Origin: an uncultured Dehalococcoidia bacterium
Lineage (GTDB): Bacteria > Chloroflexota > Dehalococcoidia > Lucifugimonadales > UBA1123
Assembly: GCA_958296105.1 (NCBI GenBank)
Contig: OY282441.1
Location: 405,800 to 469,799 of the forward strand
Reading direction: 5' to 3'
DNA length: 64,000 nt
The position numbers and the translations under genes are program-made. The notes below the pieces were generated by a model, which ran no database searches, was not told the origin of the DNA, and saw only the letters and a program-made list of their open reading frames with translations. Of this stretch, positions 53,978 to 59,405 are shown piece by piece (position 1 is the stretch's first letter; the number at the start of each line of letters is the position of its first letter).

Positions 53978-55603
53978 ATGCGCCCAATTATGGAAGTTGC
54001 CGAGGAGTTGGGGCTGAGTCGAGACTCGATCATCCCATACGGGCGGCACAAGGCGAAGATCTCGCTGGACGCCATACGCGAGGACGGCAGGCGCGGCAAG
54101 ATGGTGGTCGTCACTGGCATAACGCCCACCCCGGCGGGCGAGGGAAAGACCACCACCACCGTAGGCCTGACTCAGGCGATGGGCAGGCTCGGCAAGAGTG
54201 TCGTTGCCACGCTCAGGGAGCCGTCGCTCGGGCCGATCTTCGGCATCAAGGGCGGCGGAACCGGAGGCGGCAAGAGTGTCATAGAGCCGGATGACGAGGT
54301 GAACATCCACTTCACCGGCGACGCCCACGCCGTAGGATCGGCGCACAACCTTCTGGCGGCGCTCACGGACAACGTCGCTCAGCGCGGCAAGATCGAGGGT
54401 TTCCGGCCGGAGGGCATAACGTGGCGTCGCGTCACGGACGTTGAAGATCGCGCGCTCAGAACGATCATGACAGGCATCGGCGGCGCGAACAACGCGCCAG
54501 TGCGCGAGAGCGGCTTCGACATCGTAACCGCGTCCGAGATCATGGCGATCCTGGCGCTCTCCCGCGACCTCGCCGACCTGCGGAGACGGCTGTCTAGGAT
54601 CGTGGTCGGCTACACTGCCGAGAGCGAGCCGGTGAGCGCGGACGACGTGGGCGCGGTCGGCTCGATGATGTCGCTTCTGCGCTACGCGATTCAGCCGAAC
54701 ATCGTGCAGACTGGCGAGGGGCAGCCGGTCATCGTCCACGCTGGGCCCTTCGGCAACATCGCGCACGGCTGCTCGTCCGTCATCGGCGACAGGCTCGCGC
54801 TCGGATACGCCGACTACGTGCTTTCCGAAGCTGGGTTCGGCGCGGATCTGGGCTTCGAGAAGTTCATGCACATCAAGGCGCGGTTCAACGGGCTGGAGCC
54901 GCACGCCGCCGTCATAGTGGCGTCTGTCAGGGCGGTCAAGTACCACGGCGGGGTGAGGGCGCGCAACCTCGATGTCCCCAACGCCGACGCCGTGCGCGAG
55001 GGCATGGCCAACCTCGTCCACCTGATAGGCATGATAAAGTCTTTCAACCTGCCCGTAGTGGTGGCGCTCAACCACTTCCCCACCGACACCGCTGAGGAGA
55101 CGGCCATAGTCAAGCGCGGGGCCGAGGAGGCGGGCGCGTTCGCGGCGGTCGAGAGCAAGGTGTTCGCCGAGGGCGGCGCTGGGGGCATCGAGTTGGCGCA
55201 GGCAGTGATGGCTGCTGCCGAGCCGGACGAGCATCCGGAGATAGACTACGCCTACCCGATCGAGGCGACGCTGAGGGACAAGGTGGTCGCGCTCGCCAAG
55301 CGGGTCTACAACGCCGACCGGGTAACGTATGTCCTAGCCGCCGGGCGGCAGATGCGCCGCTTCCAAGAGCGCGGATGGGGAAACCTGCCCGTGTGCATGG
55401 CGAAGACGCATCTCTCGATCTCGCACCGCGCCGCGCTCAAGGGATGTCCGTCAGGCTACACCTTCCAGATATCGGACGTTCGGGCATCGGTGGGCGCGGG
55501 CTTCATCTACCCAATCGCCGGCAGCATCGTCACCATGCCGGGCCTGCCGGGCTCCCCCCGCCAGTTGGACGTGGACGCGAACGGGGCGATTCTGGGGCTT
55601 TAG
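53978..55603 (+). CDS. fhs: formate--tetrahydrofolate ligase
   Basis: TPTPAGEGKTTTTVGL and the PxKAKTHLS-type C-terminus (CMAKTHLSIS). Confidence 0.95.
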   Translation: MRPIMEVAEELGLSRDSIIPYGRHKAKISLDAIREDGRRGKMVVVTGITPTPAGEGKTTTTVGLTQAMGRLGKSVVATLREPSLGPIFGIKGGGTGGGKSVIEPDDEVNIHFTGDAHAVGSAHNLLAALTDNVAQRGKIEGFRPEGITWRRVTDVEDRALRTIMTGIGGANNAPVRESGFDIVTASEIMAILALSRDLADLRRRLSRIVVGYTAESEPVSADDVGAVGSMMSLLRYAIQPNIVQTGEGQPVIVHAGPFGNIAHGCSSVIGDRLALGYADYVLSEAGFGADLGFEKFMHIKARFNGLEPHAAVIVASVRAVKYHGGVRARNLDVPNADAVREGMANLVHLIGMIKSFNLPVVVALNHFPTDTAEETAIVKRGAEEAGAFAAVESKVFAEGGAGGIELAQAVMAAAEPDEHPEIDYAYPIEATLRDKVVALAKRVYNADRVTYVLAAGRQMRRFQERGWGNLPVCMAKTHLSISHRAALKGCPSGYTFQISDVRASVGAGFIYPIAGSIVTMPGLPGSPRQLDVDANGAILGL

Positions 55604-55616
55604 ACGCCGCCGCCTC

Positions 55617-55805
55617 ATGCCCAAAGTCCGAGAAGCCATGCGCTTGGTTCGGCAGGATGGGTGGTACCTTGCACGGACACGCGGCAGCCACCGCATATAC
55701 CACCATGCGCAGAAGTCGGGAAGCGTTGTGATAGCGGGTCATCCGAGTGAGGACATGAAGCCGAAAACATGGGACACCGTATTGAAACAGGCGGGCCTAA
55801 AATGA
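55617..55805 (+). CDS. hicA: HicA family mRNA-interferase toxin, cassette 1
   Basis: MPKVREAMRLVRQDGWYLARTRGSHRIYHH...IAGHPSEDMKPKTWDTVLKQAGL. This is the canonical HicA length and GSH motif. Confidence 0.9.
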   Translation: MPKVREAMRLVRQDGWYLARTRGSHRIYHHAQKSGSVVIAGHPSEDMKPKTWDTVLKQAGLK

Positions 55806-56188
55806 AGAAGACCGTGAAACTCAGGTACGCGGTAGTTTTCGAGAAAGCTCCCAACAACTACTGTGCATACGTTCCGGAGCTGCCCGGCTGCGTCGGCACG
55901 GGCAAGACTTGGGAGAAGATGCTGGCGATGATACAGGAAGCCATGGAGCTTTACATCGAAGGCATGATGGAGTGTGGCTACCGAGTTCCCATGCCGCGCA
56001 TGTCGCTCGCCAAGGCGATGGCGCACCACATATCACTGGACGATGACTACTACAACCCCGATCTTGGCATCTACGAGAAGTCTGAATATGAGGAGGAAGA
56101 GACGAGCTTCAAGTTCGTGGAGGTCGAGGTCGACCTGCCGCTGGCGAAGGTCGCCGCCGAGCCTGCGGGCGTCGGAGAGCGTCGGTAG
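55802..56188 (+). CDS. hicB: HicB family antitoxin, cassette 1
   Basis: YAVVFEKAPNNYCAYVPELPGCVGTGKTWEKMLAMIQEAMELYIEG is the HicB N-domain. The ATG overlaps the hicA stop (ATGA). Confidence 0.85.
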   Translation: MKKTVKLRYAVVFEKAPNNYCAYVPELPGCVGTGKTWEKMLAMIQEAMELYIEGMMECGYRVPMPRMSLAKAMAHHISLDDDYYNPDLGIYEKSEYEEEETSFKFVEVEVDLPLAKVAAEPAGVGERR

Positions 56189-56191
56189 GCA

Positions 56192-56380
56192 GTGCCAAAG
56201 GTCAGAGAAGCCATACGCAGGATTCGGCGGGACGGATGGTACTACGTTCGGACGCGGGGGAGTCATAGGCAATACAAGCATCCACATAAGCCCGGAAAAG
56301 TCACCATAGCGGGGCATCCGGGGGAAGATTTGTCGAAAGGCATGTTCAAAGAAATCCTGAAACAAGCCGGCATCAGGTAA
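56192..56380 (+). CDS. hicA: HicA family toxin, cassette 2
   Basis: MPKVREAIRRIRRDGWYYVRTRGSHRQYKH...IAGHPGEDLSKGMFKEILKQAGI. The GTG start lies 3 nt after the hicB1 stop. Confidence 0.9.
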   Translation: MPKVREAIRRIRRDGWYYVRTRGSHRQYKHPHKPGKVTIAGHPGEDLSKGMFKEILKQAGIR

Positions 56381-56393
56381 AGAGGAGTTCGGC

Positions 56394-56762
56394 GTGAAAT
56401 ACGCAGTCGTGATAGAGAAATGCCCAAACAATTACGGGGCATATGTTCCCGATTTGCCGGTTTGCGTAGCTGCCGCAAAGACAAGGAGCGAGACGCTCAA
56501 GTTGATCCGCGAGGGAATCGGGTATCATATCGAGTTCATCATGGAGGACGGCGACCCCGTTCCCGAACCGCGCATGTCGCTGACGGACGCGATGGTGGAC
56601 TATCTCTCCACAGGCGACGGATACCGCGACCCCGAAACTGGCGTCTATGAGAAGTACGACTACGAGGATACGGAGGTCACTTTCGTCATGGTGGAGGTGG
56701 AGGTCGACCTGCCGTTGGCGAAGGTCGCCGCCGAGCCTGCGGGCGTCGGAGAGCGTCGATAA
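56394..56762 (+). CDS. hicB: HicB family antitoxin, cassette 2
   Basis: MKYAVVIEKCPNNYGAYVPDLPVCVAAAKTRSETLKLIREGIGYHIEF. AGAGGAG lies upstream of the GTG. Confidence 0.85.
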   Translation: MKYAVVIEKCPNNYGAYVPDLPVCVAAAKTRSETLKLIREGIGYHIEFIMEDGDPVPEPRMSLTDAMVDYLSTGDGYRDPETGVYEKYDYEDTEVTFVMVEVEVDLPLAKVAAEPAGVGERR

Positions 56763-56765
56763 GCA

Positions 56766-56944
56766 GTGCCAAAAGTCAGAGAAGCCATACGCTTAGTTCG
56801 GGGTACTACGTTCGGACGCGGGGAAGCCACCGCATATATCACCATGTGCAGAAGCCGGGAATCGTTGTGATAGCGGGTCATCCGGGAAAAGACCTATCCA
56901 AAGATACATGGGACAGCATTTTGAAGCAGGCCGGTCTCAAGTGA
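56766..56944 (+). pseudogene. hicA pseudogene, cassette 3 (10-nt deletion, frameshift)
   Basis: 179 nt versus 189 nt. ...CGCTTAGTTCGG|GGTACTAC lacks the 10 nt coding the (Q/R)DGW region. Frame 0 stops after 34 codons. The old frame still reads YYVRTRGSHRIYHHVQKPGIVVIAGHPGKDLSKDTWDSILKQAGLK*. Confidence 0.85.
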
Positions 56945-56956
56945 AGGGAATTCGGT

Positions 56957-57325
56957 ATGAAGTACGTAGCGGTAATCGAGAGATGCCCAAACAATTACAG
57001 CGCATACGTTCCCGAATTGCCGGGCTGCATAGCCGCCGCAGACGCGAGGGACGAGACGATCGAGTTGATCCGCGAGGGAATCGGGTATCACATTGAGTTC
57101 ATGGTGGAGGACGGCGACCCCGTTCCCGAACCGCGCATGTCACTGACGGAGGCGATGGTGGACTATCTCTCCACAGGCGACGGATACAGCGATCCCGAAA
57201 CTGGCGTCTATGAGAAGTACGACTACGAGGATACGGAGGTCACCTTCGTCATGGTGGAGGTCGAGGTCGACCTGCCGTTGGCGAAGGCCGCTGCCGAGCC
57301 TGCGGGCGTCGGAGAACGTCGGTAG
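56957..57325 (+). CDS. hicB: HicB family antitoxin, cassette 3
   Basis: MKYVAVIERCPNNYSAYVPELPGCIAAADARDETIELIREGIGYHIEF. Intact. Confidence 0.85.
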   Translation: MKYVAVIERCPNNYSAYVPELPGCIAAADARDETIELIREGIGYHIEFMVEDGDPVPEPRMSLTEAMVDYLSTGDGYSDPETGVYEKYDYEDTEVTFVMVEVEVDLPLAKAAAEPAGVGERR

Positions 57326-57328
57326 GCA

Positions 57329-57507
57329 GCGTCCAAAGTCAGAGAAGCCATACGCAGGATTCGGGGTACTACGTTCGGACGCGGGGAAGCCACCGCATAT
57401 ATCACCATGTGCAGAAGCCGGGAATCGTTGTGATAGCGGGTCATCCGGGAAAAGACCTATCCAAAGATACGTGGGACAGCATTTTGAAGCAGGCCGGTCT
57501 TAAGTGA
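57329..57507 (+). pseudogene. hicA pseudogene, cassette 4 (same 10-nt deletion, start codon also lost)
   Basis: Same deletion junction as cassette 3. GTGCCAAAA is changed to GCGTCCAAA at the start position. Confidence 0.85.
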
Positions 57508-57519
57508 AGGAAATTCGGT

Positions 57520-57900
57520 ATGAAGTACGTAGCGGTAATCGAGAGATGCCCAAACAATTACAGCGCATACGTTCCCGAATTGCCGGGCTGCATAGCCGCC
57601 GCAGACGCGAGGGACGAGACGCTCGAGTTGATCCGTGAGGGAATCGCAGTTTACATCGAAGCTCTGATCGAGTTTGACGAGCCGCTTCCGGAGCGGCGCA
57701 TATCGCTGACGGAGGCGATGGCGGACTATCTCTCCACAGGCGACGGTTACCACGATCCCGAAACTGGCGTCTATGAGAAGTACGATTACGAGGATACGGA
57801 GGTCGCCTTCGTCATGGTGGAGGTCGAGGTCGACCTGCCGTTGGCGAAGGTCGCCGCCGAGACGGGCAGCCGCCTCGAGGTGAGCGCGGCCGGAACATAG
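57520..57900 (+). CDS. hicB: HicB family antitoxin, cassette 4
   Basis: Same N-terminus as cassette 3, a diverged middle (AVYIEALIEFDEPLPERRISL) and a different C-terminal end (AAETGSRLEVSAAGT). Confidence 0.85.
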   Translation: MKYVAVIERCPNNYSAYVPELPGCIAAADARDETLELIREGIAVYIEALIEFDEPLPERRISLTEAMADYLSTGDGYHDPETGVYEKYDYEDTEVAFVMVEVEVDLPLAKVAAETGSRLEVSAAGT

Positions 57901-57924
57901 CCATGTGAGCGCTATCCTGCGTTC

Positions 57925-59181
57925 TTGGAAAAGAGATGCGCCGTGCCAGAGTTTTTCAACGTTCGATCTCCGGCGCGGGCGCTGGCGGATTTACTGCCGC
58001 GCCTGACGCCAATCGAAGGCCGCGAGACGGTTCCGACGACCGAGGCGCTGGGGCGCATCGTGGCGCGGGACGTCCGCTCGCCAGAGGACCTTCCAACGTT
58101 CGCGCGCTCGGCGATGGACGGCTATTCGGTTCGCGCGCGCGATACGTTCGGGGCGTCCGAGAGTCTGCCTGCGCTGCTGGAAGTCGTCGCCGACATTCCG
58201 ACCGGGCAGACATCCGACATCGAGATCGGCACGGGCGAGGCGGTGGTGGCATACACCGGCGGGACGCTGGCGAAGGGGACGGATGCGGTGGTCATGGTCG
58301 AGCGAACTCAGCCGGCGGATGAGAGATCCATAGAGGTCTTGCGACCGGTCGCGCCGGGCGAGAACGTGATTCAGGTCGGCGAGGACGTTCGCAAGGGTGA
58401 GGTCGTCCTGAAAAGGGGCCGCCGTCTGCGCGCTCAGGATGTCGGCGGACTGCTGGCGCTGGGGATTGTCGAAACGGAGGTCTTGCGCCGTCCGAAGGTG
58501 GGGATAATCTCCACGGGGGACGAGCTGGCAGCGCCTAGCGAGACGCCGCCGCCGGGCAAGGTGCGCGACATCAACACCTATACCATCGCGGCGCGGGCGG
58601 CGCAATGCGGCGCGGATGCGCTCGCGCTCGGACTTTTGCCGGACGTGTACGAGGCGCAGCTGGCAGCGGCGCGCGAGGGGCTGAAGTCGGTGGACGCGCT
58701 GATCTTCTCGGCGGGCAGCTCGCTGAGTACGCGAGACATGACGGCGCGGGTATTCGATGCGCTCGGAGAACCCGGCGTGCTGACGCACGGCATATCCATA
58801 AAGCCGGGCAAGCCGACCATCGTGGCGGTTGCGGACGGCAAGCCGCTGTTCGGTCTGCCGGGCAACCCGGTATCGGCGCTGGTGGTGTTCGACCTGCTGG
58901 CCGCGCCCGCTCTCAGGGTTCTCTCTGGAGAGACGGGCCAATCACTCTCCCCTGCCATCTCCGCGCTCCTGACAGAGGACGTGCCATCCGAGTCTGGGCG
59001 TGAGGATTTTTTTCCGGTAAGGCTGTCCGAATCCGACGGCGCGGTTTCCGCATCGCCGATTTTCGGCAAGTCGAATCTGATATACACGCTGGTCGACTCT
59101 GACGGCATAGCGCGCGTTCCACCTGAATCCGGCGGATTGTATGCTGGGGAGGTCGTAGAAGTACTGATATATAAAACCTGA
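57925..59181 (+). CDS. moeA: molybdopterin molybdenumtransferase MoeA
   Basis: MoeA N/MoCF/C-domain pattern (SAMDGYSVRA, ISTGDEL, LPGNPVSA). Confidence 0.9.
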   Translation: MEKRCAVPEFFNVRSPARALADLLPRLTPIEGRETVPTTEALGRIVARDVRSPEDLPTFARSAMDGYSVRARDTFGASESLPALLEVVADIPTGQTSDIEIGTGEAVVAYTGGTLAKGTDAVVMVERTQPADERSIEVLRPVAPGENVIQVGEDVRKGEVVLKRGRRLRAQDVGGLLALGIVETEVLRRPKVGIISTGDELAAPSETPPPGKVRDINTYTIAARAAQCGADALALGLLPDVYEAQLAAAREGLKSVDALIFSAGSSLSTRDMTARVFDALGEPGVLTHGISIKPGKPTIVAVADGKPLFGLPGNPVSALVVFDLLAAPALRVLSGETGQSLSPAISALLTEDVPSESGREDFFPVRLSESDGAVSASPIFGKSNLIYTLVDSDGIARVPPESGGLYAGEVVEVLIYKT

Positions 59182-59405
59182 AGCGGTAATTTATCGCTTG
59201 TGTTAGGTATTTTGACCGACTGCGCCCGACTAGGCTCGGTCGTGCAATGTCAGAAGACTGACAAATCACCCGGATAGCCTCGATACGACGCTGAACAACG
59301 ATCACAAGAATCTGACGTATACTCTCGGTCGCTTCATCGAAGTCGTCACGCCGGATATAGACGCACCCCAAGAAAAGTCGAACCAAGAAGACGCCTGATC
59401 ATACA

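Follow-up and report, generated by a model that had tools for sequence, protein, structure and literature searches.

A tandem hicAB array with two solo antitoxin genes in the fhs-moeA spacer of an uncultured Dehalococcoidia bacterium

In the genome of an uncultured Dehalococcoidia bacterium, four head-to-tail units of the toxin-antitoxin (TA) genes hicA and hicB lie between the housekeeping genes fhs and moeA. They occupy positions 55617-57900 of the DNA stretch analysed here, a 64,000-nucleotide portion of contig OY282441.1 (positions 405,800 to 469,799; assembly GCA_958296105.1), which we call the window; all window features described below are on the forward strand. HicA is a small His-dependent mRNA endoribonuclease, and HicB is a protein with a partial RNase H fold that blocks HicA by direct binding. 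We think it likely that the locus is a lineage-conserved hicAB array, in which two live modules, with antitoxins devoid of a DNA-binding domain (DBD), and two retained spare antitoxins are carried on the fhs-moeA transcript. The direct evidence concerns the anatomy of the array, the family membership of its products, its recurrence in related genomes (loci denoted by L and a number), the orthology and mosaicism of its units, and purifying selection on the solo HicB proteins.

Organization of the array

A repeat search returned four-copy families with start-to-start spacings of 574-575, 563-564 and 563, and the units aligned with MAFFT (55617-56191, 56192-56765, 56766-57328 and 57329-57903; 575, 574, 563 and 575 bp) had a mean column identity of 84%, with an overall divergence between units of 11-34%. 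The head-to-tail arrangement of four units with a period of 563-575 bp, described in an earlier sequence-only reading of the window by a model, was thus borne out. Tandem Repeats Finder (TRF) reported no array because the longest period searched was 500. The stop codon of fhs (55601-55603) is separated by 13 nt from the ATG of hicA1 at 55617, in agreement with the same reading, and the successive intergenic gaps from fhs to moeA are 13, 3, 3, 3 and about 42 nt. All three internal junctions have the same form, as had also been noticed: hicB ends in ...VDLPLAK(V/A)AAEPAGVGERR and is followed by a stop codon, 3 nt and the start of hicA. Within the units, hicA1 and hicB1 overlap via ATGA, and the other hicA-hicB gaps are 12-13 nt.

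Unit 1 consists of hicA1 (55617-55805; 62 amino acids (aa)), which is intact and starts with ATG without a Shine-Dalgarno (SD) sequence, and hicB1 (55802-56188; 128 aa; database protein P0020). Both are of the type that we call alpha, with orthologues L081_A3, L085_A2 and L087_A2 for the toxin and L081_B3, L085_B2 and L087_B2 for the antitoxin. Unit 2 consists of the intact hicA2 (56192-56380; 62 aa; delta type), whose GTG start lies 3 nt past the hicB1 stop, and hicB2 (56394-56762; 122 aa; database protein P0002), which has a GTG start with AGAGGAG upstream. In unit 3, the hicA3 pseudogene (56766-56944) precedes the solo gene hicB3 (56957-57325; 122 aa), which has its own ATG with GAAGGGA upstream. 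In unit 4, the hicA4 pseudogene (57329-57507) precedes the solo gene hicB4 (57520-57900; 126 aa), whose product has a central patch resembling the delta-prime orphan HicB of relatives and, because the gene abuts moeA, a tail unlike the other HicB tails of the window.

In the hidden Markov model searches that had been proposed as a check, HicA1 and HicA2 matched the Pfam family HicA_toxin (PF07927; cut-off 27) with 61.6 and 81.4 bits, respectively, and all four HicB proteins matched HicB_lk_antitox (PF15919; cut-off 27) with 38-42 bits (42.5, 37.7, 42.5 and 40.7 bits for HicB1 to HicB4), over profile positions 1-65 only. NCBIfam gave no model for the array proteins. The G-S-H motif is kept in both intact toxins. 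HicA2 aligned with Burkholderia pseudomallei HicA in 6G26 (E 1.6e-11), with the catalytic His position aligned, and with 4C26 (E about 1e-11). Its 'TRGSHRQY' was placed opposite 'VTGSAHHF' of the two crystal chains, which carry a His24-to-Ala substitution, and HicA1 has 'TRGSHRIY'.

The four HicB proteins are 50-86% identical to one another, within a subfamily whose length range is 102-132 aa. The AlphaFold2 (AF2) model of HicB3, with a mean predicted local distance difference test score (pLDDT) of 83.8, has strands at residues 2-9, 14-18 and 21-28 and a helix at 31-51. A further helix and a small hairpin are inserted at 63-87, before the closing strand at 94-101, and the chain ends in a short helix followed by a disordered tail. 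All of the top 13 Foldseek hits of this model were HicB structures, matched in their N-domains only (template modelling (TM) score up to 0.77 on target length), and among PDB sequences the subfamily profile matched HicB3 of Yersinia pestis and HicB of B. pseudomallei in their N-domains. No helix-turn-helix (HTH) or ribbon-helix-helix (RHH) DNA-binding domain was found in HicB by Pfam, NCBIfam or fold search. Judging from these similarities, hicA1B1 and hicA2B2 appear to be complete type II hicAB modules. The sequence-only reading was therefore right that cassettes 1 and 2 have intact 62-aa toxins with open frames (ATG in hicA1, GTG in hicA2), that all four antitoxins are intact and diverged, and that antitoxins outnumber functional toxins two to one.

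It was also right that cassettes 3 and 4 carry dead hicA copies. The alignment revealed an identical 10-nt deletion after unit nucleotide 36 in hicA3 (between 56801 and 56802) and hicA4 (between 57364 and 57365), which removes the xDGW codons and shifts the frame; when the 10 nt are put back, a full HicA reading frame is obtained in both. Open reading frames (ORFs) of 34 and 32 aa are left in hicA3, the 32-aa remnant still scoring 32.9 bits to PF07927, and hicA4 additionally lacks a start codon (GTG to GCG). Units 3 and 4 are 95-100% identical from hicA nucleotide 37 to about unit nucleotide 320 (about 290 nt; longest exact run 111 nt), and in mid-hicB their identity falls to 57%. Since the shared deletion lies within this near-identical tract, the loss of the two toxins was one lesion copied by duplication or gene conversion, and not the two-stage process implied by the earlier description of a 'progressive' toxin loss.

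Translation of a truncated HicA3 or HicA4 was considered and rejected. In the shifted frame no ATG, GTG or TTG lies upstream of the G-S-H motif, so a truncated active toxin is not expected, and the sole remaining ORF in that frame (32 aa) begins past the catalytic His. A different lesion that inactivates a toxin, independent of the 10-nt deletion of the window, is found in L247 (2683-3023), where the first hicA after fhs is broken into two frames separated by about 100 nt.

Concerning expression, a scan with Escherichia coli-type consensus sequences matched no sigma-70-like promoter or terminator within the array or immediately upstream, which agrees, as weak evidence, with the earlier remark that no promoter was obvious. 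Since, in addition, HicB lacks a DNA-binding domain and the gaps are tiny, the array would most likely be read on the fhs-moeA transcript, without an autoregulated promoter of its own. The SD sequences of hicA are weak or absent and hicA of unit 2 starts with GTG, while hicB has either the ATGA overlap or an SD sequence of its own; this poor initiation of hicA relative to hicB favours antitoxin excess.

Each unit has one copy of the 10-nt palindrome AGGTCGACCT (4 in all vs 0.07 expected), which was rejected as an operator, being part of the repeated coding block (EVDLP) in an array whose HicB proteins have no DNA-binding domain. Rfam gave nothing at E<=0.1 in 53.5-59.5 kb. An RNA structure masking the hicA start at the junctions was also rejected: the z score relative to shuffled sequences was -4.0 at junction 1/2, only -0.6 at junction 2/3 and -1.7 at junction 3/4, and 11 junctions in relatives gave -2.5 to +0.8 with no common structure. 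The fold at junction 1/2 (56100-56230), in which a long helix pairs the tail codons of hicB1 with codons 7-12 of hicA2 and encloses the hicA2 GTG, is probably incidental because it is absent from the other junctions and from the relatives.

Recurrence and recombination at the fhs-moeA site

The best identity of the window Fhs was 89%, to proteins of Dehalococcoidia (Chloroflexota) metagenome-assembled genomes (MAGs). Most of the 80 related loci examined have moeA as the next gene after fhs, about 15-150 bp away, and this adjacency is the ancestral state. The site is empty in L039 and L055, the closest by Fhs identity (89%), and in L003 it holds a single decayed hicAB that begins 11 nt past the fhs stop, with a truncated hicA and a hicB containing an in-frame stop. 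Homologues of the window HicB with 60-70% identity came from other metagenome assemblies. Contigs of the genomes were scanned with the motif PNNYxAYVP as a seed; the scan seeded on C-terminal HicB peptides gave no match.

The following arrays were found, with A and B denoting hicA and hicB. L081, a long-read contig, has the order (HicB-like~HicA fusion), B, B, A-B, B, B, A-B, with 7 HicB domains and 3 intact HicA. L247, a scaffold ending 3' before moeA whose upstream ADH gene matches that of the window, has broken A-B, A-B, A-B, B, B, A-B... (at least 6 HicB, and 3 intact HicA plus 1 broken). L085, a scaffold with an N-run gap, has ...B, A-B, gap, B, A-B (at least 4 HicB, 2 intact HicA), and L082, a contig that begins within the array, has ...B, B, A-B (at least 3 HicB, 1 intact HicA). 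L248, a 1.4-kb contig cut at both ends and lacking fhs and moeA, has ...B, A-B, B... (at least 3 HicB, 1 intact HicA). L087, a GTDB species representative, has A-B, A-B, A-B (3 of each, all HicA intact), and L249 and L250, of a more distant lineage, have one A-B pair with an intact HicA. Copies of HicB at the fhs-moeA site thus range from 1 to 7 among relatives, and the HicB count equals or exceeds the HicA count in every multi-unit array; among those with a complete count, HicB is in excess of intact HicA apart from the three intact pairs of L087. The inspection of the fhs-moeA interval in relatives, which had been suggested with the sequence-only reading, therefore yielded arrays in other assemblies and an empty site or other TA genes elsewhere. 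Since the arrays come from independent assemblies, the array type is not an assembly artefact.

In the wider HicB subfamily, 75 of the 80 loci of species-representative genomes have one HicB each, L087 being the only array; multi-copy arrays are therefore specific to the fhs-moeA locus and this clade. The earlier judgement that the array is unusual holds for the HicB family at large. It does not hold at the fhs-moeA site of the clade, where arrays with excess HicB are common, nor with respect to the literature, where orphan antitoxins and solitary hicB genes in hic clusters are on record.

Neighbour-joining trees of all hicA and hicB copies from the window and its relatives gave orthogroups that are common to several genomes and are found in similar order. 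The alpha pair A1-B1 of the window is orthologous to pairs in L081, L085, L087 and L247, and the pair of L248 is closely similar to it. In the relatives, the cassettes that group with window A2 and B2-B4 are those of the delta type, proximal to moeA. Two types of orphan HicB, which we call gamma and delta-prime, are found without toxins and in the same order in L081, L082 and L247 (in L085, the N-run gap precedes the gamma-type copy). Because the cassette types are orthologous across genomes, the array is to be regarded as old, and not as a recent fourfold duplication. Unit 1 has 62-66% nucleotide identity to unit 2 and is an old paralogue; units 2-4 belong to another orthogroup. Moreover, hicA3 and hicA4 cluster with hicA1 (alpha) but hicB3 and hicB4 cluster with hicB2, and units 3 and 4 are therefore chimeras.

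Identity is distributed as a mosaic along the units. The terminal and initial 40-nt windows are 75-98% identical among all units, and mid-unit windows of unit 1 vs unit 2 are only 48-72% identical. The junction block, which runs from the 3' end of hicB through its stop codon to nucleotide 36 of hicA, is located at 56110-56227 for units 1/2, with equivalents at 56684-56801 and 57247-57364. The tail of HicB1-3 and the junction are almost identical within the window, and the tails of HicB1 orthologues from other genomes are different. The block has thus been homogenised within the window genome, as a substrate of recombination and not as a conserved signal. The mosaic identity, the chimeras and the homogenised junctions together point to an origin of the array by repeated unequal crossover or gene conversion, for which the junction block served as the seed.

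The features of a tandem array (four units, mosaic identity and copy-number variation among relatives) were thus all found, and aligning the units and building HicA and HicB trees, as had been recommended, was informative on the mosaic identity, the orthogroups across genomes and the chimeric units 3 and 4. In the earlier reading, the conserved junction was taken to point to whole-cassette tandem duplication; a recent fourfold duplication of one cassette does not agree with an old paralogue (unit 1), two chimeras (units 3 and 4) and a homogenised junction. Birth-and-death evolution by unequal crossover, which had been listed in the same reading, is the right framework in view of the mosaic units and of the 1-7 copies in relatives.

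The array has a GC content of 55-59%, about 10 points lower than that of its flanks (65-68%), as expected for an acquired element. The fhs-moeA spacer appears to be a recurrent landing hotspot for TA genes, since it contains different TA cassettes in different genomes and the array has the lower GC. A putative AbrB/MazE-type antitoxin and a putative PIN (VapC) toxin are present in the spacer of L001 (9669-10354), L002 (9720-10408), L045 (9610-10358) and L008 (9671-10371), and the spacer of L013 (9927-11044) has two AbrB-type ORFs (101 and 72 aa) and one VapC-like toxin (138 aa); the identities in these five loci were assigned by reading the ORF sequences. The genes of L013 may therefore represent a second TA family with antitoxin excess at this site. 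The spacer of a housekeeping gene pair can thus receive TA genes of different families over long times, hicAB here and abrB-vapC in sister lineages.

Selection on the solo antitoxins and competing explanations

Selection was estimated from pairwise dN/dS by the Nei-Gojobori method, with 95% confidence intervals (CIs) from codon bootstrap; the samples are small. Paired HicB orthologues gave dN/dS of 0.07-0.32. In the window, dN/dS was 0.31 (95% CI 0.16-0.64) for hicB2 vs hicB3, 0.41 (0.24-0.80) for hicB3 vs hicB4 and 0.39 (0.23-0.63) for hicB2 vs hicB4. Most pairs of orphan HicB types across genomes gave 0.22-0.50 with an upper bound below 1, and the upper bound was below 1 in 14 of 17 solo HicB comparisons. 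From these low values, the solo HicB proteins are kept as proteins under purifying selection.

On the basis of these results we propose the following mechanism, for which we infer co-transcription, toxicity and cross-neutralisation. By analogy with studied HicAB systems, HicA1 and HicA2 would be RNases held by direct HicB binding, and the toxin-to-antitoxin ratio would be set by translation. Recombination at the junction blocks would alter copy number and create chimeras, and would have copied the toxin-killing 10-nt deletion into two units. Loss of a toxin would be costless, while loss of an antitoxin would carry a penalty for the time that any cross-reacting HicA continues to be produced, so that the array would ratchet toward HicB numbers equal to or above those of HicA. 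HicB3 and HicB4 would then persist as extra neutralising capacity for HicA1 and HicA2. In experiments on HicAB of ANME-1, a non-cognate HicB neutralised HicA to a degree graded by similarity (PMC13385816).

A different role for the same excess is that cassette shuffling and toxin deletion have built a recombining 'antitoxin bank', in which solo, diversified HicB proteins disarm HicA delivered by phages, plasmids and other mobile elements, in a manner similar to orphan-immunity clusters, or alternatively tune the resident HicA pool. If this were true, the locus would be an intracellular analogue of orphan-immunity arrays that is always expressed through a housekeeping operon. The purifying selection on solo HicB and their conservation as orphans in several genomes fit this idea, and so does the diversity of the HicB paralogues, which is found especially in helix alpha-1, the HicA contact in solved complexes. 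HicA and HicB families are also common in phages (phrog_353 and phrog_497), and an anti-addiction role has been suggested for orphan antitoxins (PMC7192599, PMC7354431). However, we found no mobile-element or viral HicA near the alpha or delta types: the scan of viral contigs gave only distant N-domain HicB matches, and that of JGI metagenomes gave mostly distant N-domain-only matches, with one full-length match at 42% and none closer. The need to neutralise the resident HicA1 and HicA2 is simpler and explains the selection on solo HicB as well, and we therefore regard the bank, in either form, as rather unlikely.

Slightly less probable still is neutral birth-and-death, in which the locus is selfish DNA in mid-decay, the toxin-less units have no function and the excess of HicB reflects only the safe order of gene death. 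Decay does occur at this site, as seen in the fully decayed single cassette of L003, the split hicA of L247 and the empty site of the genomes closest by Fhs identity, and two low-divergence orphan pairs have relaxed dN/dS (0.76-0.84) with CIs spanning 1. Most solo HicB comparisons, however, gave dN/dS clearly below 1, every solo hicB in the window and L081 is open-framed, most with plausible starts, and the order of gamma and delta-prime shared by L081, L082 and L247 would not outlast neutral decay at dS of 0.1-0.5.

That the true locus has one or two cassettes, with the extra units or the hicA3 and hicA4 frameshifts being assembly or consensus errors, is very improbable, since, despite the near-identity of units 3 and 4 over about 290 nt, reads easily tell apart units of 11-34% divergence, the window sits in a 3.18 Mb contig, multi-unit arrays are present in at least seven other assemblies of different samples obtained by long-read and short-read methods, and a 10-nt deletion, to which unit 4 adds a start-codon mutation, is atypical for homopolymer error.

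Several points weigh against the proposal of two live modules with retained spare antitoxins. The four-unit count and both hicA lesions are read from assembled sequence, and the near-identical tract of units 3 and 4 is of a type prone to error in assemblies. Two orphan pairs have the relaxed dN/dS given above, and for the solo copies of the window, part of the low ratio could be older than the death of the toxins. The retention of all three toxins in L087 means that the antitoxin ratchet is not universal. Chloroflexota promoters may not follow the E. coli-type consensus used in the scan. The toxicity and neutralisation that we assume are carried over from relatives with a DBD, and class 1 hicAB without a DBD had no experimental characterisation as of Gerdes 2023 (bioRxiv 10.1101/2023.12.08.570793).

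Comparison with known systems and neighbouring features

The window toxins resemble those of the HicAB systems of E. coli K-12, B. pseudomallei (6G26) and Y. pestis (HicA3B3; 4P78) in HicA sequence and the G-S-H motif, and the antitoxins share the HicB N-terminal fold. A canonical HicB bears an HTH or RHH domain at its C terminus and autoregulates a dedicated promoter, whereas the window HicB has no such domain and no promoter was detected by the consensus scan. Because of this lack of a DNA-binding domain, the window cassettes resemble class 1 hicAB of Gerdes, in which hicA is upstream and HicB is a protein of 57-97 aa without a DNA-binding domain (bioRxiv 10.1101/2023.12.08.570793; mBio 2024). 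The order hicA-hicB, the overlapping or close genes and the HicA of about 62 aa are also shared. Unlike class 1, the window HicB has 122-128 aa, the extra part being the disordered tail and, between alpha-1 and the last strand, the insertion of a helix and hairpin, and the modules are tandemly multiplied.

Clusters of hic genes and tandem duplication of TA genes are on record. An island of Methanosarcina barkeri contains two hicBA, two solitary hicB and one vapBC (Gerdes, bioRxiv 10.1101/2023.12.08.570793), and TA islands and tandem duplications of PIN-associated pairs in Archaeoglobus fulgidus have been described (Makarova et al., 2009, PMC2701414). The window array is similar to such islands in that its hic genes are clustered and HicB outnumbers HicA. 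It differs from them in being strictly head-to-tail, of a single family and at a fixed site inside a housekeeping gene pair, and in having cassettes orthologous across genomes, clear inter-unit recombination and no interleaved transposases or defence genes.

Orphan antitoxins are abundant and have been proposed to be remnants or anti-addiction genes (Klebsiella pneumoniae survey, PMC7192599; review, PMC7354431); the chromosomal ccdA of Erwinia chrysanthemi is among the examples cited there. As with these, antitoxin genes in the window have outlasted a lost or broken partner toxin and have retained coding capacity. Unlike known orphan antitoxins, those of the window share an array with live paralogous toxins, and the orphans of this locus are conserved across related genomes under measurable purifying selection. 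Head-to-tail toxin/antidote units and antidote genes without an active toxin are also features of tandem type I TA loci of enterobacteria (ldr, ibs/sib and zor-orz) and of orphan immunity arrays, such as orphan modules of contact-dependent inhibition (CDI) and immunity clusters of the type VI secretion system (T6SS). These are of other molecular types, with RNA antitoxins in the former and secreted toxins and immunity proteins in the latter, and have no homology to HicAB.

Orphan antitoxins and TA islands being already known, the array is built from familiar parts. In the literature searched, we met with no account of a hicAB array that is strictly tandem, of one family and at a fixed housekeeping site, with orthologous cassettes and conserved orphans, which is absence of evidence. 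TA modules have mostly been studied as lone pairs, and the role of orphan antitoxins is debated in the field. The main value of the locus is that it provides a tractable natural series for probing orphan antitoxin function, with 1-7 HicB at one site and with intact pairs, freshly broken and fully deleted toxins, and selected orphan antitoxins. It is suitable for testing cross-neutralisation, antitoxin dosage buffering and anti-addiction.

Several observations concern related hic genes. The fusion in L081 (2115-2645; 176 aa by gene caller) joins in frame a divergent HicB-like domain of about 115 aa and a HicA domain without its own start, and resembles the fused HicB-HicA 'class 12' proteins of Gerdes. 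In L002, whose fhs-moeA spacer itself holds the AbrB/VapC-like pair, a further hicA-hicB pair (574-989) is located about 7 kb upstream of fhs, with 60% and 47-49% identity to the window proteins. The window HicB subfamily is also scattered elsewhere in related genomes, e.g., in L088, which belongs to the same genome as the empty-site locus L055.

Upstream of the array, fhs (53978-55603) encodes formate--tetrahydrofolate ligase (Pfam FTHFS, 724 bits), and downstream of it, moeA (57943-59181) encodes molybdopterin molybdenumtransferase (Pfam MoeA_N/MoCF_biosynth/MoeA_C). The likely start of moeA is the GTG at 57943 (MPEFFN...), which is preceded by GGAAAAGAG, and the mechanically listed TTG at 57925 is probably wrong; in relatives, moeA begins at the conserved MPEFFNV (start regions of L039, L055 and L001 compared). 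The next spacer in the window, between moeA and the MoeA-PBP fusion gene (59182-59405), has a GC dip to 0.53 and is empty. The equivalent spacer downstream of moeA contains an 82-aa ORF, a PIN protein and a DDE transposase in L249 (6734-8437), a NucS-like gene in L082 (2596-3861), and small unknown ORFs elsewhere (compared: L081 6734-7081). This spacer may be a second variable hotspot beside the first.

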